DNA of 32,000 bases. It comes from Candidatus Saccharimonadota bacterium. Its GTDB lineage: Bacteria; Patescibacteriota; Saccharimonadia; Saccharimonadales; UBA4665. Of the stretch, positions 12,393-32,000 are shown one piece after another. How positions within the stretch are numbered: position 1 is the stretch's first letter; each line of letters starts with the position of its first letter. The position numbers and the translations under genes were made by a program. The stretch is taken from the NCBI GenBank assembly GCA_002952755.1, contig CP025011.1, forward strand, positions 690,001 to 722,000, given 5' to 3'. Under the pieces are notes generated by a model, which saw only the letters and a list, made by a program, of their open reading frames with translations, made no database searches and had not been told where the DNA came from.

Positions 12393-12417
12393 GAGAGCAA
12401 TTAGCGTAAAAAACACA

Positions 12418-12458
12418 ATATATAGCGCGTTGCGTATAGCATAAGCGCTATATATAAT
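12418..12458. promoter_or_regulatory. 11-bp perfect inverted repeat with TATAGC half-sites, overlapping a TATAAT box upstream of the grx-like/trxB operon
   Basis: The repeat reads ATATATAGCGC-(16 nt)-GCGCTATATAT (12418-12455). TATAGC occurs at 12421 and 12435, and inverted GCTATA at 12447. TATAAT lies at 12453-12458, 41 nt upstream of the ATG at 12500, with SD AAGGGAG in between. Confidence 0.35.
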
Positions 12459-12499
12459 AGACACATACAACAAAAGAAACACTTGTAGAAGGGAGAATC

Positions 12500-12751: not shown

Positions 12752-12778
12752 AAGTAAGAGAAAGATATAGATCAAAAT

Positions 12779-13777: not shown

Positions 13778-13796
13778 GAATAGCTTCAGGGTGCAG

Positions 13797-13805
13797 TGCT
13801 ATACT
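13797..13805 (+). promoter_or_regulatory. Extended -10 box TGCTATACT upstream of the cupredoxin gene
   Basis: TGCTATACT is followed by a 22-nt leader with SD AAGGAG before the ATG at 13828. Confidence 0.4.
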
Positions 13806-13827
13806 GGGTTGGTAAGGAGCTTTTACT

Positions 13828-14331: not shown

Positions 14332-14334
14332 GGG

Positions 14335-14886: not shown

Positions 14887-14887
14887 C

Positions 14888-15370: not shown

Positions 15371-15416
15371 ATACGTCAGAGGCGCAAGAGTTGTCGAACT
15401 TGGATAGGCTTACACG

Positions 15417-16070: not shown

Positions 16071-16087
16071 GTATGTTTATCCTTATG

Positions 16088-17338
16088 CTAATTGTACGAT
16101 TCTTGCCCGGCGAACGCCAGGGATTCGGTTAATTCGCCCGCTAATTGTTGGTGTACAGCTGTTTCCAGGTTGGCCTGATTGAGGTAATGCATCATGAGTT
16201 CGTGCCAGACGGTGTCGCGGACAAAGTGAACAATGCGATCAGCAAAGGGGAGATGATTACAATAACCAAGCGCCACGTCGAGCACGTTGCAAGATACGAT
16301 TTCGCCCGCATGCAGGAGGCCTAAGGTCTCACTGCCTTGCCAGAATGCGAGCCTGGGGTCAAGTTTGGTGAGCAACTCCTCGCCGCTCGTCCACTGTAAA
16401 TCTTCCGGCTGCACGTGCGGTTCAAAAACTTCCGGGTGATACGAATCGGTAAAACGTGCGTAATAGCGTTGGATCATCCGCCATGGCACTGGCTGGTCGG
16501 CCAAGCGTGCTGACGTATAGGGCTCACTTATGGATGATTGCTGCAGGCGTTTGCCGAAATCAGGCTTTACCTGTTGCAGCTTAGCATATGAGCTGTGGGC
16601 ACGGATGCCATTCATCTCTTCGGAGAGGAGCAGGAGCGTGGTGATAGCTAAGCCGTCCACATCTTGTTCGATGGGCAGCAGGACGATGGCGCCAAGTTCA
16701 TGAAAGCTGAGGATGTTGTGTTTAGAAGCGCTGACATAATTTTGGGCTAACTTATGCCAGCGTGCGGTTGAAGGGTGGGTAATGGTGATAGGCGCGTCTT
16801 CGAAGTCGCTTGGGGTAAGTTTGCTGTATTGTTCCCTGAAAGCTTTATGCCACGAGCTGGGTTCTGCAATGAGTGCAGCGGCGTAGAGGTTGGCGGGAGT
16901 TTCGTGTTTGAGCATTGAGTCGGCCGACCTGTAGCCGAGTTGCTTCATGGCATTTTTAGGGATTTTCTTTTTGAGGAGTTTTTTGGCGACGCTCGTCTTG
17001 AGTACAAATGAAGTCGCTCTGTTAGCCGGCCTAGCGAAAAACTTTTGGATAGCGACAATAATATCCTCAGGAGAAACTCCTTCCGGGAGTGCAAGCGCTT
17101 GTCGGACGAGTAGCTCGTCGGCCTTGAGCCGTTGCTGGAGAGCTCCGTATAACTCCGGGCCAGTGGTGTCGTTAGGGTCGAGCCCTAGTTCGGCGATCTT
17201 GAGACGGGTACGCTGGATAATATCGGTGGTGACACGAATGTCGGTACTGGGGCCGCCTGCGGCATGCTCAAGCTCACGTATACTCTGGCTAAACGCCGGC
17301 TCAGTCGCCCCCAAGGCCCTCGACAGAAATTGTGTCAT
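16088..17338 (-). CDS. Hypothetical protein (416 aa), co-transcribed with the SLOG-family gene
   Basis: A long ORF whose stop lies 17 nt before the SLOG gene start. I chose the ATG at 17338 (MTQFLSRALG...) because the longest form (start 17542) would overlap the divergent gene at 17465 and its promoter. I recognise no family. Confidence 0.55.
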   Translation of the reverse strand: MTQFLSRALGATEPAFSQSIRELEHAAGGPSTDIRVTTDIIQRTRLKIAELGLDPNDTTGPELYGALQQRLKADELLVRQALALPEGVSPEDIIVAIQKFFARPANRATSFVLKTSVAKKLLKKKIPKNAMKQLGYRSADSMLKHETPANLYAAALIAEPSSWHKAFREQYSKLTPSDFEDAPITITHPSTARWHKLAQNYVSASKHNILSFHELGAIVLLPIEQDVDGLAITTLLLLSEEMNGIRAHSSYAKLQQVKPDFGKRLQQSSISEPYTSARLADQPVPWRMIQRYYARFTDSYHPEVFEPHVQPEDLQWTSGEELLTKLDPRLAFWQGSETLGLLHAGEIVSCNVLDVALGYCNHLPFADRIVHFVRDTVWHELMMHYLNQANLETAVHQQLAGELTESLAFAGQESYN

Positions 17339-17416
17339 ATCTACCCACCAGATTACCATAAGCGTTTGCGCCGGACAATTTATTGGCATGAGCGAATCCG
17401 GCATGCGTAAGCCACA

Positions 17417-17446
17417 TTGACCTACGGCTTGTCCTGCTCGTACAAT
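17417..17446 (+). promoter_or_regulatory. Candidate sigma70-type promoter TTGACC-18-TACAAT
   Basis: Hexamers at 17417-17422 and 17441-17446. An 18-nt leader with SD AAGAGG precedes the ATG at 17465. Confidence 0.45.
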
Positions 17447-17464
17447 AGGTAGTAAGAGGTATCT

Positions 17465-18223
17465 ATGCAACCAACGCAGCCAGAAGAATCGTACAAACTC
17501 TATCAGGGCCGCCTGCAGCCGGTGAGTTTTAAGTGTCCGCAAGACTGGACCCCTAATACCCTAATCGAGACTTTTTCTATCGGTCAATCGGAGTCGGGCT
17601 ATATCGAAATACCTGGCCATAGTCCGAGCATGGTTTATTTTTCTGTCGGTCAGCCAACGTTCGTGAGCGCTTCAGTAGGTCAGGAACACGAACTCACCGT
17701 CGTTACCTCTACACCGGTCTCGCTGAGAAATTGGCCTGAGCCGGTCTGCTATGTCGAGGCTGTTGCTGCAGTCGATGATGGCGCGGGCTACTCGGTTTCA
17801 TTTGGCATAAGCTCACCCAATCAGTTGTGCGATACGCCGAAAACGGTGCGCACTAATAAAGAGGTTTTACCTCTTATTGTTAAAGATGCTTCAACGCCAG
17901 AAGGCCAAGGAGTGTTAGTCTTTTCGGGTTCGGTGTACGGCTTTGCGACGAAAGAGCTAGCCCAGAATTACTTCCAGGATCCTTTGTACCAGCGTGTCAA
18001 GGGGATGATCTTAACGGTCGGTTTCGATGCCCCGCCGCGTGCCCCTAACCCCATACCGCAGGAGTTGCTGGAGCCGACTCAATCTACTGCAACCGTGATA
18101 CCAGCCAATAATGTGGCACCGCCGGACGTGACGCCCATGCCTACGCCCGGCACGGTAACTGCCCCTGATCCCGCGCCGCAAGCTACTCCAGAAGATCCCA
18201 CGACACTTCGTATTCCACGCTAG
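17465..18223 (+). CDS. Hypothetical protein with Pro/Thr/Ala-rich C-terminal third
   Basis: 252 aa with a good SD and an ORF that fills the intergenic space. The C-terminus is [17 protein letters not shown]...[27 protein letters not shown]. No signal peptide or known domain is recognised. Confidence 0.55.
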
Positions 18224-18233
18224 CCTCAGGTCT

Positions 18234-18242
18234 TGCTACAAT
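18234..18242 (+). promoter_or_regulatory. Extended -10 box TGCTACAAT, 6 nt upstream of the uvrB ATG
   Basis: The sequence reads TGCTACAAT-agtggg-ATG, with the ATG at 18249. No correctly spaced SD is present. Confidence 0.45.
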
Positions 18243-18248
18243 AGTGGG

Positions 18249-20213
18249 ATGACAGCCTTTTCCCTAGCAAGTGAGTATCAGCCGCTCGGCGACCAGCCGG
18301 CTGCTATTGCCCAATTGACCAAGGGTTTGCAGGACGGCCTACGCCATCAAACATTGCTAGGCGTTACCGGTTCGGGCAAGACCTTTACTATGGCGAATCT
18401 GATTCAAAATACTGGAAAACCTACTCTGGTGTTATCGCACAACAAGACCCTTGCGGCGCAGCTTTATAGCGAGTTTAAGAATTTTTTCCCGGATAATGCA
18501 GTGCATTATTTTGTCAGCTACTTCGACTATTACCAACCCGAGGCTTATATTCCGCGTTCGGATACCTACATCGAAAAAGACTCGCAGATTAACGAAGAGA
18601 TCGACCGTTTGCGCCATGCCGCTACCGACGCACTCCTCAGTCGCCGCGATGTCATCATTGTTGCCAGTGTAAGTTGCATTTACGGCATTGGTTCGGTGGA
18701 AGATTATGACGGGCTGTCGATTAAACTTGCCGTGGGCGAGCGGCGAGTGCGCGATAAATTTATGCGCCATCTCACCGACATTCAGTATCAGCGTAATGAT
18801 ATGGATTTCCACCGCGGCGTTTTTAGAGTCCGTGGTGACGTTGTAGATGTCTACCCCGCTGGCGAAGAGCTGGCTTACCGCATCGAGTTTTTTGGTGACG
18901 AGATAGAACGCATCTTACAGATCGATCCGCTCACCGGCGAAATTCTGAAAAAGCCAGAGACATTAACCATTTTCCCCAGCTCGCACTACGTTACGCCGCA
19001 CGACAAGCTCAAAGTGGCACTGGGTATGATCGAAAGCGAATTAGAGCAGCGGCTTCGTTTGTTTAAAAAAGATGGGAAGCTACTGGAGGCGCAGCGCCTC
19101 GAGCAGCGCACCCGCTTTGACCTCGAGATGCTCGAAGAAACAGGATTTGTGAAAGGCATCGAAAACTACAGCCGGTATCTGACCAATCGGGAGCCGGGCG
19201 ACCAGCCAGCGACATTGCTCGACTACTATCCCGATGACTTTTTGATGCTTATCGACGAGAGTCATATGACCATGCCGCAAATTCGCGGGATGTACAACGG
19301 CGACCGTGCACGGAAAGAGGTGTTAGTGGAACATGGCTTTCGCTTGCCGAGCGCACTCGATAATCGGCCGCTGACGTTTACTGAATTCGAAAAGCACGTT
19401 AATCAGGTTGTATACGTGAGTGCAACGCCAGCCGACTACGAGTTGACACACTCACCCGAACCGGCCCAACAAGTCATTCGCCCCACAGGCCTCCTCGACC
19501 CGCCAATCGAAGTTCGACCCATAGATGGCCAGATAGATGATCTTATCGCCGAAATCCGCGCCACCATCGACAAACGTCAGCGCGTTTTGGTCACCACGCT
19601 TACCAAGCGAATGAGCGAAGATCTTACTGATTATTTGAAAGAGTTGAACATTAAAGTTGCCTACTTGCATAGTGATGTTGATACACTCGACCGCACCGAT
19701 ATCCTGCGCGATTTACGTCTGGGGGTGTACGACGTGCTCGTAGGTATTAATTTGCTCCGCGAGGGACTCGATTTACCCGAAGTATCATTGGTAGCTATTC
19801 TGGACGCCGATAAAGAAGGTTTTTTGCGCAGTAGCCAGGCGCTCATCCAAACCGTAGGCCGCGCCGCGCGCCACGTCGAAGGCCATGTCATTATGTATGC
19901 CGACCGCATCACTGATAGTATGCGCACGACTATCGATGAAACTGACCGCCGCCGCGCCATCCAGGAGCAGTACAATACCGAGCATGGCATCACACCAACC
20001 GGTATTAGCAAACAGATCGAAAAAGGTATGCGCCCCGACCTTCCGGAAGAAGCCAAGCGCGCCAAGATCGACCTCAAAAAGATCCCCAAAGACGAGTACA
20101 AATCGCTCATTAAAGATTTGACCTCACAAATGGACCTGGCAGCCGCTAACCTCCAGTTCGAAACAGCCGCTGAACTTCGTGATATTATTGCAGACATAAA
20201 AGGGAGGATGTAA
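18249..20213 (+). CDS. uvrB: Excinuclease ABC subunit B
   Basis: 654 aa. The N-terminus is [14 protein letters not shown]. Motifs are Walker [14 protein letters not shown], the DESH box ([11 protein letters not shown]), helicase C motifs and a C-terminal UVR domain ([17 protein letters not shown]). Confidence 0.95.
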
Positions 20214-20215
20214 GG

Positions 20216-20800
20216 ATGGGGACATACAAAAATACTATTGAAGCGTATGGCCAACAAACGCTATCAACGGCGGCCCACCACCTACGAGGCCTTGAATGGG
20301 TGAATCGTCAAGTCGAAAAGTTCACTGGCCTTACCGGGCCCAGTGCCCGCATATGTCGCTATCGTATTGGCGATGCTTTAGGTGATCCAGGCGACTTTGT
20401 GACTATTGCGCCGACAGAGATTTCGCCAGCGTCAGATGAAGAGGATCCAAAGGGGTATCGCCCTAGTACATGGAAGCGTGCTCTAATTGCTGCTAACCGC
20501 AAGCAGTTTGAGAATGTGATGGGGGAATGGCGGTCCAGGCGAATGGCGATAGCCTATTGCTTAGGCGAGCGGACGATGATCGGCGTTAATGAACGCACAT
20601 CTGAACCACTATGTGTGCCGGTGGATAGAAGCGGAGAGTTTGCAGAAAATGGGGAGCTATTAGCTGTCAACGTTGGTATAGGCCCCCAGCCAAATACGAT
20701 TGTACTTGGCGCTGCAGCGGCACACGGTAGGTTAATTCATACAGTAGATACCTTTTTATTACCTGTTCAAGAGATTCCTCGTGAAGTGCACCAAGTGTAG
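20216..20800 (+). CDS. Hypothetical protein (194 aa), tightly coupled to uvrB
   Basis: The ATG at 20216 lies 2 nt after the uvrB stop. The ORF fills the gap to gatC. I recognise no family. Confidence 0.5.
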   Translation: MGTYKNTIEAYGQQTLSTAAHHLRGLEWVNRQVEKFTGLTGPSARICRYRIGDALGDPGDFVTIAPTEISPASDEEDPKGYRPSTWKRALIAANRKQFENVMGEWRSRRMAIAYCLGERTMIGVNERTSEPLCVPVDRSGEFAENGELLAVNVGIGPQPNTIVLGAAAAHGRLIHTVDTFLLPVQEIPREVHQV

Positions 20801-20844
20801 TAAGGGTATGCGTGTTGACATCTCTGGTAGCGGGTGGCAGCGTC

Positions 20845-20853
20845 TGCTATAGT
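20845..20853 (+). promoter_or_regulatory. Extended -10 box TGCTATAGT upstream of gatC
   Basis: TGCTATAGT is followed by aaaaggaatt (10 nt) and then the ATG at 20864. Confidence 0.4.
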
Positions 20854-20863
20854 AAAAGGAATT

Positions 20864-21157
20864 ATGGCAGACTTAACACGCGATGATGTCTTAAAATTGG
20901 CTCAACTCGCCCGGTTGACGCTCTCTGAAGAGGAAATCGAAAAGTACCGTAGTGAGCTCAGCCAGATCCTGGCATACGTTCAGCAGCTAAAAGACGTAGA
21001 CGTTACTGGTCTTGAACCCACCTCCCAGGTAACGGGTCTTATGAACGTTATGCGTGAGGATGAAGTTGTAGATTACGGCGTTAGTCCGGATGATTTGCTG
21101 CGCATTGTACCTAGCAAGCAGGATCGGCAGATCAAAGTAAAAAGGATGATCGCGTGA
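20864..21157 (+). CDS. gatC: Asp/Glu-tRNA(Asn/Gln) amidotransferase subunit C
   Basis: 97 aa from the ATG at 20864. The sequence MADLTRDDVLKLAQLARLTLSEEEIEKYRSELSQILAYVQQL is canonical GatC. Confidence 0.9.
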   Translation: MADLTRDDVLKLAQLARLTLSEEEIEKYRSELSQILAYVQQLKDVDVTGLEPTSQVTGLMNVMREDEVVDYGVSPDDLLRIVPSKQDRQIKVKRMIA

Positions 21158-22590
21158 GCATGCAAGCCAGCCAGTGGCTGCCTATTGCCGAACTCAGCGC
21201 CAAAGTACGAGCTGGCGAGCTACGTGCCGCAGATTTAGTTGAACAAGCCCTGAAGACCATCGAGGCTAAAAAAGAATACAATGCTATTATCGCCACGATC
21301 CCCGAACGGGCTCGCACGCGGGCAGCAAGTATTGACGCTGCCATCAAAAATGGCGAAACGGTGGGGCGCCTTGCGGGCGTCCCTTTTATTGCCAAAGATA
21401 ATTTTTTGGTTTTTGGGGCTGAGACAACTGCTGCAAGCAATATGCTTAAAGGTTTTACAGCACCCTATCAGTCCACTGTTATCGAAAAGCTTGAAGCCGA
21501 GGGGGCGATTTGCGTTGCCAAGGCTAACCTCGATGCCTTTGCGCATGGTGCCAGCACCGAAAATAGCGACTTTTTTACGACCAAAAATCCGGCCGACGTT
21601 GCGCGCGTGCCCGGCGGTTCTTCAGGTGGTTCGGCAGCCGCAGTTGTTTTAGATATGGCGCCATTTGCACTGGGCACCGATACTGGCGGCTCGGTACGGC
21701 AGCCGGCCAGCTTCGTGGGCTGTGTCGGTTATAAGCCTACGTACGGGTTGATGTCTCGCTCCGGTATCGTGGCGATGGCTAGCAGTACGGACGTCGTAGG
21801 GACGCTCACACGCACTGCCGACGATGCCGCCTATGTTATTGATGTCATTGCCGGGCGCGATCCGCTCGATGGCACGACGATTGAGCGTGACCCTGCCGGC
21901 TACACGGATGTGCCTGCTGCTATGAAGGGTAAAAAGATCGGCCTCATCAAAGAATGGATGGGTGAGGGTGTTGCTCCGGGCGTAGCAACTGTTATCCGCA
22001 GCGCCGCAGATGCGTTTCGTGCTGCGGGCGCCGATGTGCGAGAAGTGAGCCTGCCGTCCCTGCCGCTATCGCTTGCCGTTTATTACATTGTCGTACCAGC
22101 AGAAGTCAGCAGCAATTTGAGCCGTCATGACGGCCAGCGTTTTGCGTTTAGCTATGCAGATGCGGCTACACTCGACGAGAGTTATACACAATCACGGGGT
22201 AACGGTTTTGGTGCGGAAGCTAAGCGCCGCATCATGATCGGTACCTATGTGCTCAGCAGCGGTTACTACGACGCTTATTACCGCAAAGCACAGACTGTCC
22301 GCACCAAGCTCATTAATGAGTTTAATGAAGCTTTTAAACAGTTTGACTTCTTGATCGGCCCGGTGGCGCCCACTACAGCTTTCAAAATCGGTGAAAACGC
22401 AAGCGATCCGCTCCAAATGTATCTTGCCGATGTCATGACTGTTGGTCCAAGCTTGGCTGGCCTCCCCGCTATTAGCGTTCCGGCCGGTACGAGCGATAAT
22501 CTTCCAGTAGGCTTGCACATAGTAGCGCCACAGCGATCTGACCGTGCCCTATTAGGTATGGCCAAAGCGGCCGAGGAGTTGCTGGCATGA
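21154..22590 (+). CDS. gatA: Asp/Glu-tRNA(Asn/Gln) amidotransferase subunit A
   Basis: 478 aa with the amidase signature GGSSGGSAAAV and the Ser-cisSer-Lys context. The GTG start overlaps the gatC stop (GTGA). An in-frame ATG at 21160 is an alternative start. Confidence 0.95.
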   Translation: MSMQASQWLPIAELSAKVRAGELRAADLVEQALKTIEAKKEYNAIIATIPERARTRAASIDAAIKNGETVGRLAGVPFIAKDNFLVFGAETTAASNMLKGFTAPYQSTVIEKLEAEGAICVAKANLDAFAHGASTENSDFFTTKNPADVARVPGGSSGGSAAAVVLDMAPFALGTDTGGSVRQPASFVGCVGYKPTYGLMSRSGIVAMASSTDVVGTLTRTADDAAYVIDVIAGRDPLDGTTIERDPAGYTDVPAAMKGKKIGLIKEWMGEGVAPGVATVIRSAADAFRAAGADVREVSLPSLPLSLAVYYIVVPAEVSSNLSRHDGQRFAFSYADAATLDESYTQSRGNGFGAEAKRRIMIGTYVLSSGYYDAYYRKAQTVRTKLINEFNEAFKQFDFLIGPVAPTTAFKIGENASDPLQMYLADVMTVGPSLAGLPAISVPAGTSDNLPVGLHIVAPQRSDRALLGMAKAAEELLA

Positions 22591-23027
22591 CCCACCACCT
22601 GCTCTTACTAAGTTCTGCTGCTGGTGCGGCTGTACTTGTTGCTGCAGTTGTGACTGTAACGGCAGTACGCCGACTCCGGCCACAGCCCCTCAAAACCGAA
22701 TATTTCCAGGGAAAGTGGCAGGAATTGCAGAAGCTGCTACGCGACAAAACCAAGTGGCCTGAAGCTATCTCAGAAGCCGATAAGCTTTTGGATGAGGCGC
22801 TCAAAAAGCGTCGTATCCGCGGCGGTAGCATGGGCGAGCGCCTCGTGAAAGCACAGCGTCTGTTTACCGATAATGATAGCCTATGGTTTGCACACAAGCT
22901 ACGCAACAAATTGGATGCCGAACCAGAGACAAAACTGAAAGAGCGGGAAGTAAAGCAAGCCTTGATTGGTACCCGGCAAGCCCTCAAAGACGTAGGCGCG
23001 CTGCCTAGTGGAAAGGCGACACCATGA
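22587..23027 (+). CDS. Small single-pass membrane protein of unknown function inserted between gatA and gatB
   Basis: 146 aa with an N-terminal hydrophobic helix (LLLLSSAAGAAVLVAAVVTVTAV) followed by a charged helical domain. ATGA overlaps join it to gatA (22587-22590) and gatB (23024-23027). Confidence 0.6.
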   Translation: MTHHLLLLSSAAGAAVLVAAVVTVTAVRRLRPQPLKTEYFQGKWQELQKLLRDKTKWPEAISEADKLLDEALKKRRIRGGSMGERLVKAQRLFTDNDSLWFAHKLRNKLDAEPETKLKEREVKQALIGTRQALKDVGALPSGKATP

Positions 23028-24511
23028 CGCTCAGCACTGCACTACGCCAAAAATACACGCCGACCATTGGCATCGAATGTCATGTACAGCTCAAGACCGC
23101 TACGAAACTGTTCGCCGCCGTCGGCAACGACGCCCGTGAGGCAGAGCCCAATACGCTGGTAAGTCATATCTGTTTTGGTCTGCCTGGTGCGCTACCGGTA
23201 CTCAATAAAGAGGCGGTGCATTTGGGTATGCGTGCCGCATACGCTCTTGGAACCGTGCCTCAGAAGTACAATGCATTCGACCGCAAACATTATTTTTACC
23301 CCGACTTACCGTTTGGTTATCAGATTACACAATATGCACAACCTATTGTGCTGGGTGGCTCGGTTGCCATTGTCGTAGATGGCCAGACTAAGCTTATTCG
23401 TATTACCCGTGCCCACCTTGAGGCCGATGCCGGTAAGAGCACCCACCCGACTACCAGTAAGGACTACAGCCTGGTTGATCTCAACCGCGCTGGCACACCC
23501 CTGCTCGAGATTGTCTCCGAGCCAGATATGCATACCAGTGCCGAGGCAAAAGCTTACGCACAGGAACTATATCTCAGTATGCGTTTTGCCGGAGTGTCGG
23601 ATTGCAACTTATACTACGGCAATATGCGTTTTGACGTGAACGTGTCAGTAAGTACGACCGACCAGCTTGGCACACGAACCGAGACCAAGAATCTCAACAG
23701 CTTCCGTTCAGTAGAAAAAGCCATCGATTACGAAATAGAGCGTCAGATAGAGCTGCTCGAAAAAGGTCAGGAAATCGTACAGGAAACACGTGGCTGGAAC
23801 GATGCCAAGCAGCGCACCTTTAGCCAGCGTACCAAGGAAGATGCACACGATTATCGGTACTTTCCCGATCCGGATATCCCGCCGGTGGTGCTGGACGATG
23901 ACTTTATTGCAGTCGTGCGGGATGAAATGCCAATATTGCCCAACGAATGGCGCCAGAGGCTACAAAGTCTCGGTTTGGACCGCCCTGCAATGGAAGCGTT
24001 GCTTGACGCAGAACTCGATGACCCTGAGGTTAGCTACTTGGGCCTCATCGAAGAAGTCTTAAGCGATAAAGATTTCGCCAAAACGCTTGCTAATTGGTTT
24101 GTGAATCTCGAAGTGCCCTTACGCCGTGACGTGTCAACGCATCTGAATCAGGCGCTCACCAATCAAGGCCGCCTAGCGCTCTACCGTGCAGTAGCGGCGC
24201 TGATTGCGAGCGGCAAGCTTAATTCTACGAATGCCAAAATACTCATCACCAAAGTATTAACTGGCGAAGAGCAGATCGCCGATATCGAAGCCTTCGCACG
24301 CCAGCATAACCTCATTCAGGAATCAGACGAGGGCGCAATTGCTGCAGTGGTAGCCAAGGTGATCGAGGAAAACCCGAAAGCCACCACGGATATCAAAAAC
24401 GGCGAGATGAAGGTTATCGGCTTTTTGGTCGGCCAAATTATGAAAGCCTCTCAGGGCCGCGCTAATCCAGGCCTGGCGCAGGAGCTTATTAAGAAACAGT
24501 TAGGACTATAA
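23024..24511 (+). CDS. gatB: Asp/Glu-tRNA(Asn/Gln) amidotransferase subunit B
   Basis: 495 aa. The N-terminus is YTPTIGIECHVQLKT. Also present are RAHLEADAGKS and a C-terminal YqeY-like tail ending GRANPGLAQELIKKQL. Confidence 0.95.
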   Translation: MTLSTALRQKYTPTIGIECHVQLKTATKLFAAVGNDAREAEPNTLVSHICFGLPGALPVLNKEAVHLGMRAAYALGTVPQKYNAFDRKHYFYPDLPFGYQITQYAQPIVLGGSVAIVVDGQTKLIRITRAHLEADAGKSTHPTTSKDYSLVDLNRAGTPLLEIVSEPDMHTSAEAKAYAQELYLSMRFAGVSDCNLYYGNMRFDVNVSVSTTDQLGTRTETKNLNSFRSVEKAIDYEIERQIELLEKGQEIVQETRGWNDAKQRTFSQRTKEDAHDYRYFPDPDIPPVVLDDDFIAVVRDEMPILPNEWRQRLQSLGLDRPAMEALLDAELDDPEVSYLGLIEEVLSDKDFAKTLANWFVNLEVPLRRDVSTHLNQALTNQGRLALYRAVAALIASGKLNSTNAKILITKVLTGEEQIADIEAFARQHNLIQESDEGAIAAVVAKVIEENPKATTDIKNGEMKVIGFLVGQIMKASQGRANPGLAQELIKKQLGL

Positions 24512-24515
24512 GATA

Positions 24516-25418
24516 ATGGCAACAACAAAGCGTCCCACGAAAGCAGTAATTCCTGCAGCTGGCTTTGGCACCAGATTCTTGCCGCAAACCAAGGCGATGC
24601 CAAAAGAGATGTTGCCGCTAGTCGACAAGCCCATCATTCAATACATTGTCGAACAGTTGGTAGCGGTAGGAGTGAAAGATATTATTTTAGTCACCGGGCA
24701 AAATAAGCGCAGTATCGAAGATCATTTCGATGCGCCAACCCAGGATCTGCTCACTAACCTGAAGATGGGCGGCGAAAAAAAGAAGCCATTAATCGAAGAA
24801 GTTGAAGCCATTGCTAACTTAGCAAATTTTATTTACGTGCGCCAGCGGCCGCAATATGGCAATGGAATTCCACTGCTCGATGTTGAGCACCTCATTGGTG
24901 ACGAGCCGTTTATTTACACCTGGAGCGATGACCTTATCGTTTCAGAGCCTTCTTGTTTTGGACAGATGATTGCCGCGTACCAGGAATTCGAGGCCCCGGT
25001 TATCTGCAGTGTGCGAGCCGGCAGCGAAAGCGACTTTAAGCAATACGGTTTCACTGGCGGCAACGAATTACGTCCTGGCATTATCGACGTAGATGCAATT
25101 ATCGAGAAACCGGGCAGCCGCGATGCCTCTCCTTCTGACCTCGTCAGCTGCAACGGCTTTGTCATGACACCGGATATCTTCCCGTACTTGCACCAGGCTC
25201 TGGAAGAAATACAACCTGGTGATGAGCTGTACTGTAATGACGGCCTCAAGCGGATGCTCGCAGACGGCCAGCGTCTGATCGCCATGGAAGCACAAGGCGG
25301 CACCTGGTACGATGCAGGTGACAAGCTGGCATATCTTAAGACGGTTGTTGACTTCGCCCTCAAGCGCGACGACATTGGACCCGCTTTGCGCGACTACCTA
25401 AAAACCCTGGAGTTGTAA
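24516..25418 (+). CDS. galU: UTP--glucose-1-phosphate uridylyltransferase
   Basis: 300 aa. The N-terminal KAVIPAAGFGTRFLPQTKAMPKEMLPLVDKPIIQYIVEQ is the GalU signature. Confidence 0.9.
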   Translation: MATTKRPTKAVIPAAGFGTRFLPQTKAMPKEMLPLVDKPIIQYIVEQLVAVGVKDIILVTGQNKRSIEDHFDAPTQDLLTNLKMGGEKKKPLIEEVEAIANLANFIYVRQRPQYGNGIPLLDVEHLIGDEPFIYTWSDDLIVSEPSCFGQMIAAYQEFEAPVICSVRAGSESDFKQYGFTGGNELRPGIIDVDAIIEKPGSRDASPSDLVSCNGFVMTPDIFPYLHQALEEIQPGDELYCNDGLKRMLADGQRLIAMEAQGGTWYDAGDKLAYLKTVVDFALKRDDIGPALRDYLKTLEL

Positions 25419-25456
25419 AGCTTGCCATTAGTTGTATACTAAAAGAGTAAAAGCTT

Positions 25457-25711
25457 ATGACTACTGCCGAACAAATCCTTGTCGCAACGCTTGCCACAGT
25501 ACTGGCAATGTTACTTATATTAGCTATTGTTGCTGTCGTTCAGGTAATTAAACTGATCAAAGTGTTACGGGTTATCGCCGAAAAGGCCGAAGAGCTTGTC
25601 GACTCGGCCGAATCTGCTGCCGACATGGTGAAGAACGCAGCCGGGCGTTTGAGTGTGCTCCGTTTCGCACAAAGTGTGCTAGATATGGCAACCAAGCATA
25701 AAAGTAAATAA
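25457..25711 (+). CDS. Small membrane protein, DUF948-like (N-terminal TM plus helical tail)
   Basis: 84 aa. A TM helix (LVATLATVLAMLLILAIVAVV) is followed by an amphipathic helix. The gene sits next to a YtxH gene, a pairing I recall from Gram-positive genomes. The family call is tentative. Confidence 0.5.
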   Translation: MTTAEQILVATLATVLAMLLILAIVAVVQVIKLIKVLRVIAEKAEELVDSAESAADMVKNAAGRLSVLRFAQSVLDMATKHKSK

Positions 25712-25735
25712 TTGGCGAGTAACCAAGGGAGTGTT

Positions 25736-26140
25736 ATGAGTAAGGGGACAAAGAAATTTGCAGTCGGCACGGTTGTTGCTGCGGCAGCAGGCTATGTTGC
25801 CGGTATGTTGACAGCTCCAAAGAGTGGTAAGGAAACGCGCGATGATATTAAGCGTGCGGCTGAGCGCACGTATGGGGCTGCCGAGAAAGAACTCAAGGCC
25901 CTCCATACTGAACTCAACAAATTGATGGAGCAAGGCCGCAGTAAGGCCAGCGAACTGAAGGGCACGGCCAAAGACAATCTCGATAAGGCCATAGAGTCCG
26001 CCAAGACGGCGAAAGAGAAAACACGCGATTTATTGAGTGCAGTGCACGAAGGCGACGCCGACGACAAAGACTTGAAGAAAGCTGTCGAAGAAGCGAATAA
26101 GGCAGTTGAACATCTGCGCAGTTTTCTAACTAAAACATAG
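25736..26140 (+). CDS. YtxH domain-containing protein
   Basis: 134 aa from the ATG at 25736, with SD AAGGGA upstream. The N-terminus FAVGTVVAAAAGYVAGMLTAPKSGKETRDDIK is the YtxH signature, followed by a long charged coiled region. Confidence 0.75.
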   Translation: MSKGTKKFAVGTVVAAAAGYVAGMLTAPKSGKETRDDIKRAAERTYGAAEKELKALHTELNKLMEQGRSKASELKGTAKDNLDKAIESAKTAKEKTRDLLSAVHEGDADDKDLKKAVEEANKAVEHLRSFLTKT

Positions 26141-26158
26141 TCTGCCTGTCAATATTGG

Positions 26159-26269
26159 TGTTAGATAATCACCCCCTCAGAAAAACAGAGTCAGGCGTAG
26201 TGCAGCCAGACCGACGTAAGTCGGCCTGCGCGTAACGCTCTGTTTTTCTGAGGGGGTGATTATCTAACA
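26159..26269. repeat. Giant hairpin element, copy 1: 32-bp perfect stem plus 47-nt conserved apical core
   Basis: Bases 26159-26190 are exactly complementary to 26238-26269. The core (26191-26237) contains CCGAC-GTAA-GTCGG. The core is 40/47 identical to that of the element at 30165-30269. Confidence 0.95.
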
Positions 26270-26375
26270 GGCGCCATTCCTCGGCAATGTTATAGAACTC
26301 AAGCTGTTTTCGCCCACTTGCCAATGCTATTATAAGAGTATTGAGACTTCGGGGTATGATCTGGCGATCAGTGGA

Positions 26376-26384
26376 TGCTACACA
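26376..26384 (+). promoter_or_regulatory. Variant extended -10-like box TGCTACACA upstream of dnaE
   Basis: It shares TGCTACA with the other boxes but ends in A rather than T. It lies 30 nt upstream of the ATG at 26415, with AAAGGG as a possible SD. Confidence 0.25.
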
Positions 26385-26414
26385 CGAGGCTAGATATCTA
26401 AAAGGGTAGTTGGT

Positions 26415-29400
26415 ATGGAAAGAATAAAAGAGAAGAAAACACACCCACAGACGCTCTCACCCAGCGATTATGTGCATTTGCACAACCATACTCAGTACAG
26501 TCTTTTGGATGGGCTGACAAAGGTAGGCGGCCTGGTACAATATGTAAAAGAGTCCGGTATGGTAGCCGTAGCCCAGACCGACCACGGCACACTTTCCGGC
26601 AACATCGAATTTTATAAAGAGGCCGTTGCTAATGGCGTAAAACCGCTGCTAGGGATGGAGGCGTATGTCGCTGCGCGGACCATTGCCGACAAAGAGCCTG
26701 GTAAAGACAAAGTATATTATCACCTGATTTTGATCGCCATGAATAACACTGGCTACCAAAATCTGATGCGCCTGAGCACCATTGCCAATCTAGAGGGTGT
26801 GTACTATAAACCCCGCATCGACCACATCTTGCTGGAGAAGTATAGCGAGGGCCTGATCGTCGTTAGTGGTTGTATCGGTGGCGAAATTGGCGATGCTGTT
26901 CGCCAGGGTCAGTATGATAAAGCAATCGAGACAGCCAAATGGTATAAAAAGGTATTTGGCGATCGCTACTATGTAGAGGTGCAAGATCACGGTCATCCCG
27001 ATCACCCCAGTAAGTGGGACGAGCAGGTCCAGGTGAATGAGCAATTGCTCAAACTGGCGAAAGAGCTGGATATCCCGCCAGTAGTTACTTGCGACGCGCA
27101 CTACCTCAGCCACGACGACCAAACTGCACATGAAATTCTGCTATGTGTGCAGACCGGCTCTTTCCTAAGCGACGAAAAGCGTATGTCGCTCGCTAATTTC
27201 GAATTACACGTCACCGACCCCAACGATATTATCAAAAGATGGAGCGACTACTGCCCTGAGGCGATTACGAATACTCGCGCGATCGCCGACCGCTGCAATG
27301 TGGAAATTGAACTGGGAAAGATCTTGATTCCTAAATTTCCGGTGCCTGCGGGCGAAGACGAAAAATCATATTTGGATAAGTTAGTTTTTGCGGGGCTCGC
27401 CGAACGCTACAATGGCATCGAGCGCGAAAAGGCCGAAGCAATGAGTATTCCGGAAGTAAAGGCCACGCTTAAGACCGAAGTGCTGGAGCGCGCTGAGTAC
27501 GAACTGAGCGTGATTGATGGCATGGGTTTTAACGGTTACATGCTGATTGTTCAGGACTTTATTAACTGGGGTAAAGACCAGGGAATTATCTTTGGCCCGG
27601 GGCGCGGTTCAGCCGCCGGCTCAATTATTGCCTTCGCGTTGCACATTACCGATCTTGATCCGCTGGCATACGGCCTGCTCTTTGAGCGCTTCCTAAACCC
27701 CGACCGTATCAGCATGCCCGATATTGACGTCGATATTCAGGACACCCGCCGCGATGAGGTAATTCAGTATTGTTCCGAGAAGTATGGCGCCGACCGCGTA
27801 TCAAACATCGTAACCTTTGGTAAGATGGCTGCCCGCGCGGCAGTGCGCGATGTTGCCCGTGTGCTGCAAGTGCCATACGCCGAAGCGGACCATCTGGCCA
27901 AGCTTATTCCCCAGCCAGTACAGGGCAGACACATTCCGCTCAAGGTGAGCATCGAAAAAGATCCGGACTTACGCCGGGAGTATGAGAACGACGAAACTGC
28001 CAAGCGGGTAATTGACTTAGCGATTGCGTTGGAAGGTACCATTCGTAGCCACGGTGTGCACGCTTGTGGTGTGGTGATTGCTCCGGCGGAGCTGGTGCAG
28101 TACGTGCCACTGGAAATGGCCCAAAAAGGAGTGGTTGCAACCCAGTTTTCTATGGGGCAGATCGAAGAACTTGGGCTACTTAAGATGGACTTCCTTGGCC
28201 TTTCAAACTTGACGATCATCAAAAACGCTATGCGCATCATCAAGAGAGTCCACGACATCGACATTGATTTAAATGCCATACCTCTTGACGATCCAGAAAC
28301 TTTTGCCCTGTTAGGCCGCGGCGATACAACCGGTGTATTCCAGTTTGAATCTTCCGGTATGAAGCGCTATTTGCGCGAACTGAAACCCACGGTATTTGAT
28401 GACGTGATCGCTATGGGTGCGCTCTATCGTCCGGGTCCGCTTTCAGCTGGCCTGACAGAGAGTTTTATTAAGCGCAAGAATAATCTGGAAGCCGTGGAGT
28501 ACGCACATCCGCTTATGGAGCCTGCCCTCGGGAGTACCTTTGGCGTGTTGGTATATCAGGAGCAGGTAATGCAGATCTCGCGCGATGTATGCGGTTTTAC
28601 CGGTGGTGAGGCCGACACGCTGCGTAAGGCTATCGGCAAGAAAAAGCTCGATGTTATGGAGAAAATGCAGGTTAAGTTCATCGACGGTGCAGTGGCGAAC
28701 GGCGTGCCAAAGCGAGTGATTGAGAAGTTCTGGAAGGATTTACTGGGGTTCGCCGACTACTGTTTCAACAAGTCACACTCAGCCTGCTATGGTATGACCT
28801 CGTACTGGACGGCATATCTGAAGGCGCACTATCCGTCAGCCTTTATGGCCGCGCTGATGACCAGCGATTTCGACGACACCGACCGCTTAAGTATCGAAAT
28901 ATCGGAATGTCAAAAGATGGGTATCAATGTGCTGCCACCCGACATCAATGAGTCGTTCCATGAGTTTGCTGTGGTGCCAGATAAAAATAATCCGGATAAC
29001 CGTAAGGCTGATATTCGATTTGGTATGGATGCCATCAAAAATGTCGGTACCGGGGCAGCAGATGAGATTATCCGGGCGCGTGATATCGACGGCGGCTTTA
29101 CGAGCCTGGAAGATTTCTTAGGCAAAGCCAATGTCCGCATTGCCAACCGCAAGGCGCTGGAAAGCCTGATTAAGGCCGGAGCATTCGACCGCTACGGCGA
29201 GCGCTCACAACTCTTGCATAACCTGGACGTTATTATCGCCTACGGAAATCGCTTGCAAAAAGAAGCGAGTAGTGGGCAGGTTGATCTGTTTGGTAGCGCC
29301 GACGAGTCGCTACAAATTGCCAAGCCGCAGCTACTGCTTGAGAAAGCTGCCACAGTATTTAACTCGCGCGAGCAGCTACTGTGGGAGCGGGAATTGCTTG

Positions 29401-30107
29401 GACTGTACCTAAGCCAGCATCCGCTGAGTATGTATGCCACTTATTTGGCTGAGCAAACACTGCCCTTAAACGAACTAAAACCCACACATGACGGTAAGGC
29501 GGTTACCATTGGTGGCGGCATCACTGATATGCGCGAGATCACCACTAAAAATGGTGCCAAGATGGCTTTCGTGAAGCTCGAAGATCAGTTTGGGGAGATC
29601 GAGCTCATCCTGTTCCCGAATGCGTACCAACAAACGGCCGGATTATGGGAGCGCGACCGAGTCATTTTATGTCGCGGTAAGGTTTCGGCCAAAGATCGCG
29701 AAGGTAATACTAGCGAAGAATTGAAGATCATGGTAGACGACGCTCGCGAGATCACAGCAGAGCAGGCGCAAGGCTACCAGGAAACGGGGAGGCGCATAAA
29801 AGTCCCGGGTGCTAAACGTTCCGTCGCCGCAGTAACAGCTACACGTAGCAGCGCAGTAAGTGCAAAGCCGATGCCAGTAACACCGCCCCGAGTATATATT
29901 CGCCTCCCCGATGGGAGTGACCAACAAACGCTTTTACATATTAAGCAGGCCCTAGACGATAATAAAGGTGACACTGAGGTCGTGCTGGTGCTCGGTGTTT
30001 CAGAGAGTAAACAAATTATTAAATTGCCCTCCAAAATCAATGCAGGGGAGCCAGTACTTGCCCGGCTGCGCGAAGTCGCTGGCGATACGAACATAAAGAT
30101 CCAATAA
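26415..30107 (+). CDS. dnaE: DNA polymerase III subunit alpha
   Basis: 1230 aa. The PHP domain carries VHLHNHTQYSLLDG. Core motifs are FGPGRGSAAGS and MPDIDVDI, with HhH and OB-fold regions. The C-terminal ~150 aa comprise a low-complexity linker and a small terminal domain. Confidence 0.95.
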   Translation: MERIKEKKTHPQTLSPSDYVHLHNHTQYSLLDGLTKVGGLVQYVKESGMVAVAQTDHGTLSGNIEFYKEAVANGVKPLLGMEAYVAARTIADKEPGKDKVYYHLILIAMNNTGYQNLMRLSTIANLEGVYYKPRIDHILLEKYSEGLIVVSGCIGGEIGDAVRQGQYDKAIETAKWYKKVFGDRYYVEVQDHGHPDHPSKWDEQVQVNEQLLKLAKELDIPPVVTCDAHYLSHDDQTAHEILLCVQTGSFLSDEKRMSLANFELHVTDPNDIIKRWSDYCPEAITNTRAIADRCNVEIELGKILIPKFPVPAGEDEKSYLDKLVFAGLAERYNGIEREKAEAMSIPEVKATLKTEVLERAEYELSVIDGMGFNGYMLIVQDFINWGKDQGIIFGPGRGSAAGSIIAFALHITDLDPLAYGLLFERFLNPDRISMPDIDVDIQDTRRDEVIQYCSEKYGADRVSNIVTFGKMAARAAVRDVARVLQVPYAEADHLAKLIPQPVQGRHIPLKVSIEKDPDLRREYENDETAKRVIDLAIALEGTIRSHGVHACGVVIAPAELVQYVPLEMAQKGVVATQFSMGQIEELGLLKMDFLGLSNLTIIKNAMRIIKRVHDIDIDLNAIPLDDPETFALLGRGDTTGVFQFESSGMKRYLRELKPTVFDDVIAMGALYRPGPLSAGLTESFIKRKNNLEAVEYAHPLMEPALGSTFGVLVYQEQVMQISRDVCGFTGGEADTLRKAIGKKKLDVMEKMQVKFIDGAVANGVPKRVIEKFWKDLLGFADYCFNKSHSACYGMTSYWTAYLKAHYPSAFMAALMTSDFDDTDRLSIEISECQKMGINVLPPDINESFHEFAVVPDKNNPDNRKADIRFGMDAIKNVGTGAADEIIRARDIDGGFTSLEDFLGKANVRIANRKALESLIKAGAFDRYGERSQLLHNLDVIIAYGNRLQKEASSGQVDLFGSADESLQIAKPQLLLEKAATVFNSREQLLWERELLGLYLSQHPLSMYATYLAEQTLPLNELKPTHDGKAVTIGGGITDMREITTKNGAKMAFVKLEDQFGEIELILFPNAYQQTAGLWERDRVILCRGKVSAKDREGNTSEELKIMVDDAREITAEQAQGYQETGRRIKVPGAKRSVAAVTATRSSAVSAKPMPVTPPRVYIRLPDGSDQQTLLHIKQALDDNKGDTEVVLVLGVSESKQIIKLPSKINAGEPVLARLREVAGDTNIKIQ

Positions 30108-30164
30108 TAGGGCGTGCCTGGATAAGAGCCTGTCTACCCGCTAGTTGCTTTTGTGATTAGTTCC

Positions 30165-30269
30165 GATCACCCTGCCTGCTGCCCCAAGGGGAGTCGCGCG
30201 TAGCGCAACCAGACCGACGTAAGTCGGCCTGTGTGAAACGCTCCCCTTGGGGCAGCAGGCAGGGTGATC
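30165..30269. repeat. Giant hairpin element, copy 2: 29-bp perfect stem plus 47-nt conserved apical core
   Basis: Bases 30165-30193 are exactly complementary to 30241-30269. The core (30194-30240) carries the same invariant 23-mer CCAGACCGACGTAAGTCGGCCTG as copy 1. The element lies between the convergent dnaE and NUDIX stops. Confidence 0.95.
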
Positions 30270-30274
30270 ATCTA

Positions 30275-30814
30275 TTAGTTGAGCAATCCGAGATGGTCGA
30301 GTGCCAGAAACGCACCGGCGGTATCAGTCAGCTGACCAGCACGTACTTGGGTGATGAAATCGGCGAGATCGACCAGCTCTACTTCACCAAATTCTGCATC
30401 ATCTAGCTGCGGTTCAGTAACTTTCTTGCAATTTTTTATGATGATGACACTACGATCCATTTGGGTATAGGCGTCACTCTCCCACGTGCCAATCCAATCT
30501 TCGACATCGCCGGCGTAGCCCGTTTCTTCGAGTAATTCGCGGATCGCAGCGTCGCGTGGCGGTTCATTGGCGTTTACCTTGCCGCCGGGTAATTCACGAA
30601 GAATAGTGTTTGGGCCGGGCCGGTACTGCGGGATAGTGATAACTTTGCTGTCGGTAGTAAGCGCGAACACGCAAGCGCCGGCGTCTTCAATGCGCAAGTA
30701 GTAGTCGGCGATCGTACCATTCGGCAAGCGGTAGTCGCGACGCTCAATGGTTTGAGAATATTTGTGGTAAGCGATTTCGCGTTTTAGCTCTTGCCATGTC
30801 TGCGTTTTGGCCAT
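30275..30814 (-). CDS. NUDIX hydrolase (ADP-ribose pyrophosphatase-like)
   Basis: 179 aa with the Nudix box GGKVNANEPPRDAAIRELLEETGY. A strong SD AAGGAGGG lies upstream. Confidence 0.85.
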   Translation of the reverse strand: MAKTQTWQELKREIAYHKYSQTIERRDYRLPNGTIADYYLRIEDAGACVFALTTDSKVITIPQYRPGPNTILRELPGGKVNANEPPRDAAIRELLEETGYAGDVEDWIGTWESDAYTQMDRSVIIIKNCKKVTEPQLDDAEFGEVELVDLADFITQVRAGQLTDTAGAFLALDHLGLLN

Positions 30815-30840
30815 GAACGTACCCTCCTTGTTGAGACCTC

Positions 30841-30849
30841 ATTGTAGCA
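30841..30849 (-). promoter_or_regulatory. Extended -10 box TGCTACAAT for the NUDIX gene
   Basis: The minus strand reads TGCTACAAT, then a 26-nt leader containing AAGGAGGG before the ATG at 30814. Confidence 0.45.
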
Positions 30850-30863
30850 TCATGTTTGGACGG

Positions 30864-31928
30864 CTAGTAGATGAGTCCGGCAGAGCGGGATAAAACGGCG
30901 CCGAGTAGGCCAATTGCCACGAGCACTATGTCGAGCAACTTATGCTTCATGATGAAGGCTTCGCCGCGAACCAGGGTTTTGTGCCAGAGTAATCCATGCC
31001 GCAAGAAGAAGATGGCGAGGCTGACGGTAGCAATTGTGCTGACAGCAAACATACTCCAAGGGGCATTGGCGCCCGAGAGTAGCTGGACGCGGGAAACATC
31101 CTTGCTGGCGACAGTTTTTGGCATACTATTAGCTGCCCCAGGCGTAGTCGTTGTGGTGTTGGTTTCGGGAGCTTTTTTAGCAGGGTTGTCGCTGCTAGCT
31201 GGCGGCGCGGCAGGGTTTGCGGCCGCACTGGGTGCGCTCTGAGCGGGAGCTGGTTGCGTGGCAGGCGTTACTGTTGGTTGATGCGCGGGTGGTGGGGCGT
31301 TAGAAGTCGCAGCTGCAACGCTGGGTTGCGGGCTGCCATATTCAGCAACGACAATTGTCTCCGGCCCGGTACCTTGGTAGTCAGGAGAATTAGCTACGCC
31401 AAAGCCGACATCTGTATACGTTGTATTGAGAATGTTGGCACGGTGCTCGGCGCTATTCATCCAAGCGGTAACCGTGGCATCGCTACTATCGAATCCGTAA
31501 GCTAGGTTTTCGCCTGCAGTCTGATAACTATAGCCAGCGGCGGTAAAGAAAGTCCAGGGCGTGGCGCCGTCGGGCGTGTTGTGCGCCCAGTAATCTCTTG
31601 CGACCATATCATTCGCTTTCGCCTGGGCTGCGCTGGCGAGCTGGTTATTCAGCGCGAGGCTGCCAAGACCATTGCTAGACCGCTGCGCGTTGGTAGTAGT
31701 AGCCAATTCAGCAATGCTCATATCAGTGGCGTAGCCGAGAACGCTTTTATGTATATTGCCCAAAAAGCTATTACAAAAAAGTCCGACGGCCACGATGGCA
31801 ATAATTGGAATATAGGGCCAATAGGTCTTCATATAGTGGTCGTTGCGCTGATGATGCTGACCGCTGCGCCGCTTGTTGTGCGGCGACTTGGTAGAGACTC
31901 GTTTTTTTGATTTTGCTGCAAGAGCCAT
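30864..31928 (-). CDS. CAP/SCP (PR-1-like, YkwD-like) domain membrane protein
   Basis: 354 aa. A basic N-tail and a TM helix precede the CAP domain (AQAKANDMVARDYWAHNTPDG...GENLAYGF...WMNSAEHRANIL...VGFGV). A Pro/Ala/Thr-rich linker and two C-terminal TM helices follow. An alternative start at M33 (31832) is possible. Confidence 0.8.
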   Translation of the reverse strand: MALAAKSKKRVSTKSPHNKRRSGQHHQRNDHYMKTYWPYIPIIAIVAVGLFCNSFLGNIHKSVLGYATDMSIAELATTTNAQRSSNGLGSLALNNQLASAAQAKANDMVARDYWAHNTPDGATPWTFFTAAGYSYQTAGENLAYGFDSSDATVTAWMNSAEHRANILNTTYTDVGFGVANSPDYQGTGPETIVVAEYGSPQPSVAAATSNAPPPAHQPTVTPATQPAPAQSAPSAAANPAAPPASSDNPAKKAPETNTTTTTPGAANSMPKTVASKDVSRVQLLSGANAPWSMFAVSTIATVSLAIFFLRHGLLWHKTLVRGEAFIMKHKLLDIVLVAIGLLGAVLSRSAGLIY

Positions 31929-31937
31929 CTTAATAAA

Positions 31938-31946
31938 AGTGTAGCA
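31938..31946 (-). promoter_or_regulatory. Extended -10 box TGCTACACT, 9 nt upstream of the CAP-protein ATG
   Basis: The minus strand reads TGCTACACT-tttattaag-ATG, with the ATG at 31928. No SD is present. Confidence 0.35.
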
Positions 31947-32000
31947 TACGCCTATGCAAAGCGGCAGTGATACAGCGCCATGGCGGCTGCTTGCACAACG

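Follow-up and report, generated by a model that had tools for sequence, protein, structure and literature searches.

A perfect hairpin downstream of dnaE is one of a small family of hairpin repeats, so far undescribed, in Saccharibacteria

What does a perfect hairpin of 105 bases do between two convergent genes, and what would it mean for its centre to recur on another stem? The question is raised by a 32,000-nucleotide stretch of a Candidatus Saccharimonadota genome (contig CP025011.1, positions 690,001 to 722,000 of the forward strand), which we call the window and whose coordinates are used unless another contig is named. The hairpin occupies 30165–30269, 3' of dnaE, and the original prediction took it to be one of a family of repeats in which a conserved core is carried on copy-specific stems. 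In what follows, c2 (copy 2) denotes this element, c1 (copy 1) its counterpart at 26159–26269, and c3 and c4 two further copies; P1 is the long stem and P2 the apical hairpin. Comparison of the four copies, which bears out the idea of a repeat family, shows a small and undescribed group of hairpin repeats in Saccharibacteria (TM7) with a conserved 47-base centre and stems that differ completely. Our tentative answer is that the element is akin to repetitive extragenic palindromes (REPs) and may act at the 3' ends of transcripts as a hairpin that can be read on either strand, its conserved internal loop being a putative protein-recognition module.

An inverted-repeat search of the window returned c1 and c2 as the only inverted repeats of at least 18 nt. 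The arms of c2 (30165–30193, GATCACCCTGCCTGCTGCCCCAAGGGGAG, and 30241–30269) are 29 nt long and 100% complementary across a spacing of 47 nt; those of c1 (26159–26190 and 26238–26269) are 32 nt long, with the same complementarity and the same spacing. The 29-bp stem without mismatches that had been described around the 47-nt core of c2 is confirmed, all 29 pairs being Watson–Crick. As RNA, c2 folds at −86.6 kcal/mol on the plus strand and −89.7 kcal/mol on the minus strand, against about −39 kcal/mol for shuffled versions of the sequence (z about −13.5 to −13.9), and none of 200 shuffles matched it; with DNA parameters z is about −12.5. The c2 sequence is found unchanged in independent Logan assemblies of four runs. 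Because of these independent assemblies, and because a second species represented by two independent metagenome-assembled genomes (MAGs) also carries the element, c2 is not an assembly or sequencing-adapter artefact. Hairpins of this kind do break short-read assemblies, and Logan contigs end at c1 and at c3.

The core of c2 comprises a 16-nt 5' strand of an internal loop (30194–30209, TCGCGCGTAGCGCAAC), the apical hairpin P2 (30210–30231, assigned to the minus strand, with 9 pairs) and a 9-nt 3' strand of the loop (30232–30240, TGTGAAACG). The 47-nt core of c1 (26191–26237) consists in the same way of TCAGGCGTAGTGCAGC, P2 and CGCGTAACG. Of the 47 core positions, 7 differ between c1 and c2 (3, 4, 11, 15, 39, 41 and 43), the same positions that had been counted before, and the cores have in common a 23-mer that chance would not be expected to produce.

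Two further copies were found outside the window. The first, c3, is located about 2.2 kb past its right end, on Logan contig L010 (positions 1 to ~90, equivalent to L051:2143–2224), which reaches 2.27 kb beyond the window. On the chromosome this copy is inverted relative to c1 and c2, and a PilB/T2SSE gene stops 38 nt before it. The contig starts with GAG followed by TCAAGCGTAGTGCAACCAGACCGACCTTTGGCCGACCTGCATGTAACG and CTCCATATGGAGTGTGCGGTAGATGTCTTGG; the far arm was not recovered. The two contigs that carry c3 come from different runs and both break off at one identical base, 3 nt inside the far arm, which a repeat break at k=31 does not predict. The second, c4, was found in L018 and L019, two MAGs of a relative whose DnaE is 82% identical (22688–22796). 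It is placed between convergent UPF0102 and M1 peptidase genes, a junction other than that of dnaE. The arms of c4 are 30 nt long and mismatched at two places. On the plus strand of L018 one of these is C·A, and on the opposite strand it is T·G. The arms are followed by UAUUUUUAUCUAUUU, a U-rich tail on the UPF0102 strand, which is also the strand with the better P2. The original prediction had considered the case that additional copies would show decayed stems; two mismatches in 30 pairs are a mild departure and not decay.

All four copies can be written as G, then TCAAGCGTAGTGCAAC, a hairpin, YRYGTAACG and finally C, with the outermost G–C pair closing P1. The 47-nt module is composed of the 16-nt strand TCAAGCGTAGTGCAAC, a P2 of 8–10 bp that is free in sequence, and the 9-nt strand YRYGTAACG. 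GTAG is invariant in the four cores and is separated from P2 by 6 nt. The 5' loop strand is identical at 17 of 17 positions between c3 and c4, despite a DnaE identity of 82% and genomes that are roughly a genus apart. A covariance model (R2) built from the four copies scores each of them at 60–93 bits and detected no further copy in 323 kb of Saccharimonadales loci, including 21 kb elsewhere in the same genome; in the genome of the window there are three copies in the ~75 kb examined, all within ~8 kb.

The sequence of P2 varies and its pairing is retained. In c1 and c2 it reads CAGACCGAC-GTAA-GTCGGCCTG, in c3 CAGACCGACC-TTT-GGCCGACCTG, and in c4 CCAAGGAC-ATAT-GTCCTTGG, a wholly different sequence that still pairs. 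Across the helices of the four-copy alignment, 90% of cells pair and 9 of 21 pairs change on both sides, values reached by none of 500 shuffles; shifting the 3' partners by at least one column lowers pairing to 25–46%. For P1, 7 of the 12 modelled pairs covary. The comparison of folds that had been suggested as a check comes out in favour of the apical helix, which is backed by full covariation between CAGACCGAC/GTCGGCCTG and CCAAGGAC/GTCCTTGG. A compensatory pair had also been put forward between core positions 15 and 41. The exchange itself stands (G...C in c1, A...T in c2, c3 and c4), but it amounts to a single covariation event, and RNAalifold favours a neighbouring register. Taken together, the covarying helices and the strongly conserved asymmetric internal loop bear the signature of recognition in folded, single-stranded form, and the single-strand structural role assigned to the element earlier is plausible.

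The departures from Watson–Crick pairing in P2 are not symmetric between strands. Those present (four cells at three sites) read as A·C or C·A on one strand, the one carrying TCAAG, and always as G·U on its complement; in c2, one of the nine pairs is A·C on the plus strand and G·U on the minus strand. For both c1 and c2 the G·U strand is the minus strand of the window. RNAalifold gives −23.6 kcal/mol for the complementary strand compared with −19.1 kcal/mol for the TCAAG strand. For c2, c3 and c4, the strand on which P2 pairs better is also the one found in the mRNA of the closest gene upstream, namely NUDIX (5 nt), T2SSE (38 nt) and UPF0102 (2 nt).

The long arms behave differently from the core. 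All 61 pairs in the arms of c1 and c2 are Watson–Crick, with no G·U. The outer part of the c2 left arm, GATCACCC, is common to c1, and the inner 21 nt are copy-specific. The outer arm motif in the window genome is TAGATRATCACCC, 12 of 13 positions being identical between c1 and c2. On the right-hand side of c2, positions 30262–30269 together with an unpaired extension, ATCTA (30270–30274), which abuts the NUDIX stop codon (30275–30277), make up GGGTGATCATCTA, a homologue of the c1 outer arm that is likewise identical at 12 of 13 positions. The arms of c1 and c2 resemble each other only in these outer ~13 nt and an inner GAG, and the 16–21 nt between them cannot be aligned. L018 has another outer arm motif (GCGGCCRCCTGG), which c4 shares with a second hairpin. 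Since the constrained cores differ by ~15% while the arms remain perfect, the copies are not recent, and pairing must have been maintained in place. We also considered whether the arms are spacer-like. A search for them as guides or spacers gave no match among viral contigs, in the window or in the other loci examined, and the idea was rejected on the grounds that the arms match nothing else.

With respect to genes, c2 starts 57 nt after the stop of dnaE (26415–30107, plus strand) and ends 5 nt from the stop codon of a NUDIX gene (30275–30814, minus strand), so that the distances given in the original prediction are correct. The corresponding distances are 18 nt for c1 from the stop of a YtxH-like gene that ends at 26140, 38 nt for c3 from T2SSE, and 2 and 9 nt for c4. 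The earlier statement that the elements sit directly 3' of genes holds.

This placement suggests a role at transcript ends. We envisage that transcription of the flanking gene or genes would run on into the element and make it their final ~110 nt; for c2 the genes concerned would be NUDIX (minus strand) and dnaE (plus strand). The very stable hairpin would then mark or protect the 3' end of the transcript as a barrier to 3' exonucleases, and perhaps as a site of pausing or termination, with the asymmetric internal loop and P2 forming the recognition module for a putative protein. At convergent junctions the same DNA would have to fold on both strands, and P1 would consequently tolerate only Watson–Crick pairs; it may evolve in concert, either by compensatory change or by hairpin-templated correction, while its sequence drifts. 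We favour the transcript-end reading on account of the post-stop placement, the G·U pairs confined to one strand (in three of four copies, the one that forms the mRNA of the nearest gene), the U-rich tail of c4, the long perfect hairpins at other gene ends (L014, L023 and L048) and the lack of other terminators: in window positions 12001–32000 there are 17 canonical hairpin-plus-T-tract terminators compared with 21 expected from shuffles, hence no excess. Because only four copies are known, we infer this function and hold it with less than even confidence.

Several observations weigh against a transcript-end role. A stem acting only in RNA would be expected to carry some G·U pairs, and the arms contain none (0.9^61 = 0.0016). 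No T-run or U-tract follows the stem of c1 or c2 on either strand, and the terminator scan did not call them. For this reason c1 and c2 are not canonical intrinsic terminators, and the bidirectional terminator put forward in the original prediction cannot be of that type. The strand asymmetry of P2 rests on three sites (p ~0.1–0.25). In addition, c1 is flanked by two plus-strand genes, ending 145 nt before the start of dnaE, and its better-P2 strand is no obvious mRNA; in that direction we observed only a weak promoter-like match (9/12) and found no remnant of a lost minus-strand gene beside c1. The three copies of the window genome are clustered within ~8 kb, and neither the remaining 26 kb of the window nor the 21 kb elsewhere in the genome contains one. 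Finally, the dnaE flanks of five relatives (L014, L017, L020, L021 and L023) are without the element, dnaE and a CAP-domain gene being convergent and 8–11 nt apart in L017 and L020. A copying mechanism is thus needed, and a cis-acting RNA role does not supply one. The RNA-level role predicted originally has to be qualified in the same way, as the Watson–Crick-only arms, the patchy presence and the genome-specific outer motif point at least equally to a REP-like process at the level of DNA.

Such a process forms the most serious alternative, which we consider possible but rather doubtful. The element would be REP/REPIN-like mobile DNA that works as single-stranded DNA (lagging-strand template) or as a cruciform, any effect on RNA being secondary. 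The stem would present the 47-nt loop, with GTAG and the imperfect P2, to an HUH/Y1 enzyme (a RAYT-like transposase, Rep or relaxase) that nicks or copies it. Arms restricted to Watson–Crick pairs are what one would predict for a site that acts through both DNA strands or through a cruciform, and the patchy occurrence among relatives, the local clustering of the copies and the difference in outer arm motif between the window genome (TAGATRATCACCC) and L018 (GCGGCCRCCTGG) are all consistent with mobility. In REPs, a GT(A/G)G head directly precedes an imperfect palindrome (Nunvar et al. 2010, PMC2817692), and the invariant GTAG of the four cores likewise lies 5' of one, although its distance of 6 nt from P2 means that it does not abut the hairpin. 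A further point in favour is a RAYT-like Y1 transposase gene (L020 9107–9940, 205 amino acids) in the same ytxH–dnaE gap of a relative. The gene is flanked by REP units TTTCCAAGGGCACTCCTTGGAAA arranged as a doublet, with a REPIN-like doublet with 32-nt arms upstream. These units are unrelated in sequence to the present family, however, and the protein is only a weak match to NCBIfam REP_Tyr_transpos (E = 2e-8; 34 bits, under the cutoff of 80). Moreover, there are no Y1, HUH or transposase genes in the window or in ~30 kb more of the genome, copy number looks low, and the copies are not near-identical, with cores 15% different and inner arms that cannot be aligned. Their orientation is mixed within ~8 kb.

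Insertion might also have left target-site duplications. A 7-nt direct repeat, ATTAGTT, does flank c2, at 30156–30162 (ending 2 nt before the left arm) and at 30274–30280 (starting 4 nt after the right arm). No direct repeats were found at c1 or c4, and, this 7-mer excepted, neither repeats in the flanks nor an origin of the arms from flanking genes did better than chance. A consistent target-site duplication across copies was not found, which argues against mobile DNA. The transcript-end role is ranked slightly above it, since no partner enzyme came to light and the family consists of few, old copies. The two are not mutually exclusive, as judged by analogy with classical REPs, which do both.

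Long hairpins at gene ends are common in this clade, and this raises the alternative that the arms are pre-existing host terminator hairpins into whose apical loops a tiny insertion element, the ~47-nt core, has inserted itself. Hairpins that lack the core, with perfect stems of 12–24 bp, do exist at gene ends. That of L014 (17056–17099) has a 20-bp perfect stem and a 4-nt loop. One found in L023, L024 and L025 (15088–15203, equivalent to L026 7514–7629), 13 nt after a SpoU stop, has a 24-bp perfect outer stem that encloses an imperfect inner one of 26 nt, and in sequence it bears no relation to the core of the family. In the same genome as the window, L048 and L047 carry at a convergent junction (11864–11897) a 12-bp perfect hairpin, ATCTACCACCCG-N10-CGGGTGGTAGAT, whose base resembles the outer arms of c1–c3 and whose loop, GCAAAGCGTT, is similar to AAGCGT, with which the core starts. 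A long, complex hairpin directly after dnaE in L018 (13724–13930) is decayed, with 56-nt arms that are 77% complementary; its centre is unrelated to the family core and its outer 12-nt motif, GCGGCCRCCTGG, is that of c4. The copy-specific arms and the position of every copy just past a stop codon would fit insertion into such loops. On the other hand, the homology of the outer 13 nt of the c1 and c2 arms (12/13) implies that these are not independent host sequences. Removal of the core would leave perfect palindromes of 58–64 bp without a loop, centred on GAG/CTC, and no empty site was found. A core difference of 15% further implies that the insertions would be old, yet the arms are perfect. 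We therefore regard insertion into host hairpins as quite unlikely.

Somewhat more improbable still is a small-RNA precursor, in which the ~47-nt core would be released by RNase III from the long stem, as rRNAs are from their processing stems. Stems of 29–32 bp are good RNase III substrates, a conserved centre on a stem of free sequence is the pattern of a processing stem, and P2 pairs better on one strand. Nevertheless, the copies do not share a conserved promoter, a complementary target was not identified, and RNase III tolerates G·U pairs and mismatches, which leaves the Watson–Crick-only arms unexplained. Nor does Rfam offer a match. Across the window, Rfam 15 gave none at gathering thresholds, and a permissive scan returned only generic long-hairpin (miRNA-precursor) matches of at most 33 bits, compared with thresholds of 58–96 bits.

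Perfect inverted repeats around an asymmetric segment, together with the opposite orientation of c3 on the chromosome, could also indicate a site of recombination, either a 47-bp segment that can invert or a folded site of the attC kind. This is very improbable. The orientation of the core is the same in the window and in four independent Logan contigs, 47 bp is very short for recombinase-mediated inversion, the stems are without the extrahelical bases and R/L boxes of attC, and no recombinase or integrase gene lies nearby. Integron attC sites differ further in having imperfect stems and in forming cassette arrays next to intI, whereas the perfect stems described here stand among housekeeping genes.

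Other searches returned nothing that would connect the core to a described element. The family core can be written as the degenerate pattern AAGCGTAGTGCAAC-N(14-30)-GTAACGC. Exact scans of GTDB genomes, JGI metagenomes and IMG/VR with an 18–20-mer of the apical hairpin, a part of the core that is not conserved, gave only chance matches in coding sequence, and a two-motif degenerate pattern had 20 matches in IMG/VR, none with a hairpin or arms. BLAST of the core against phages and plasmids gave nothing relevant. The core had been considered as a possible part of a known mobile-element terminus; no known terminus matches it. In the literature we found no paper that ties Saccharibacteria or Patescibacteria to REP, miniature inverted-repeat transposable element (MITE) or terminator hairpins.

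By analogy, the closest known kind is the REP/REPIN extragenic palindrome with its RAYT transposase (PMC2817692; Bertels & Rainey, PMC3337134). Shared features are the extragenic position at gene 3' ends and convergent junctions, a GTAG 5' of an imperfect hairpin, complementary changes that keep pairing, a hairpin of ~100 nt and, in the related genome L020, a RAYT-like gene. REPIN arms, however, are conserved inverted REPs, whereas in this family each copy has arms of its own and the loop is occupied by one conserved module, with GTAG set off from the hairpin by 6 nt. REPs number tens to hundreds of near-identical copies per genome, compared with a few diverged copies (cores ~15%) in this case, and no cognate RAYT was found in the window or the extra loci of this genome. 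Bidirectional terminators and 3'-UTR (untranslated region) stabilisers are similar in being stable hairpins 2–57 nt past stops, often between convergent genes, in a Watson–Crick pairing that serves both strands, and in the U-rich tail seen in c4. They are unlike the present element in that its stem is far longer, its 47-nt centre is conserved and asymmetric, and c1 and c2 have no U-tract.

MITEs such as Correia/NEMIS, RUP and BOX resemble the element in being short, non-coding, repeated and intergenic, in varying in presence among relatives, and in having terminal inverted repeats, which are conserved between c1 and c2. They differ in that the inner 16–21 nt of the arms here cannot be aligned between copies although each arm pair is perfect, in the want of a consistent target-site duplication, and in that no parent insertion sequence is known. 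In HUH nick-site hairpins (rolling-circle double-strand origins, oriT, the origins of CRESS viruses) and in integron attC, as here, folding outweighs the sequence of the stem and a conserved motif is exposed as a single strand; unlike those systems, the 32-kb window contains no Rep, relaxase or integrase gene. The core motif TAGTGCAAC, with CTACG, may resemble known nick sites. The family is set apart from those described by its single loop module, its perfect copy-specific arms, its low copy number and its conservation between genera. It is conceivable, though unlikely, that it represents a new structure-defined element of Patescibacteria, in which a conserved ~47-nt recognition module, made up of the loop with GTAG and a hairpin marked by G·U pairs, is carried on a long stem kept perfectly Watson–Crick by an active process in situ. 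Such upkeep may take the form of hairpin-templated correction or of regeneration by a dedicated single-stranded DNA or RNA enzyme; the sequence of the stem would then be at liberty to vary and might even be programmable.

The surroundings of the element are those of an ordinary chromosome. All DnaE homologues belong to Candidatus Saccharimonadales/Patescibacteria (TM7), the best non-self identity being 85%. The dnaE and NUDIX genes are gene calls, with the CAP-domain gene next to NUDIX, and the rest of the window encodes uvrB, gatCAB, ABC transporters, TetR, FKBP, a thioredoxin-reductase-like protein and others. The window contains no transposase, recombinase, reverse transcriptase or CRISPR genes, and no tRNA or tmRNA. 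The NUDIX gene between dnaE and CAP is missing in most relatives, where dnaE adjoins CAP, and L023 has a NUDIX gene at the dnaE/CAP spot in the opposite orientation; the spot beside c2 is variable. The centres of c1, c2 and c3 lie at 26214, 30217 and ~34242 (the last extrapolated), with spacings of 4003 and ~4025 nt, a near-evenness that may be coincidence. Elsewhere in the window, an intergenic, AT-rich sequence upstream of the gene at 1272 (1027–1055, GATATATTATAAC-GTT-GTTATAATATATC) forms a perfect hairpin or palindrome of 13 bp and may be an operator or promoter element.

Patescibacteria have tiny genomes and almost no characterised non-coding elements. Should the family prove to be a new class of element, it would represent either an unknown kind of mobile hairpin DNA or a new protein–RNA system at transcript ends. 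It also offers a natural test case for the upkeep of long palindromes, in which selection on both strands can be set against correction by template switching. Furthermore, whether as a protein-binding motif or as an HUH substrate, the element gives a handle with which to find a partner protein in an uncultured lineage.
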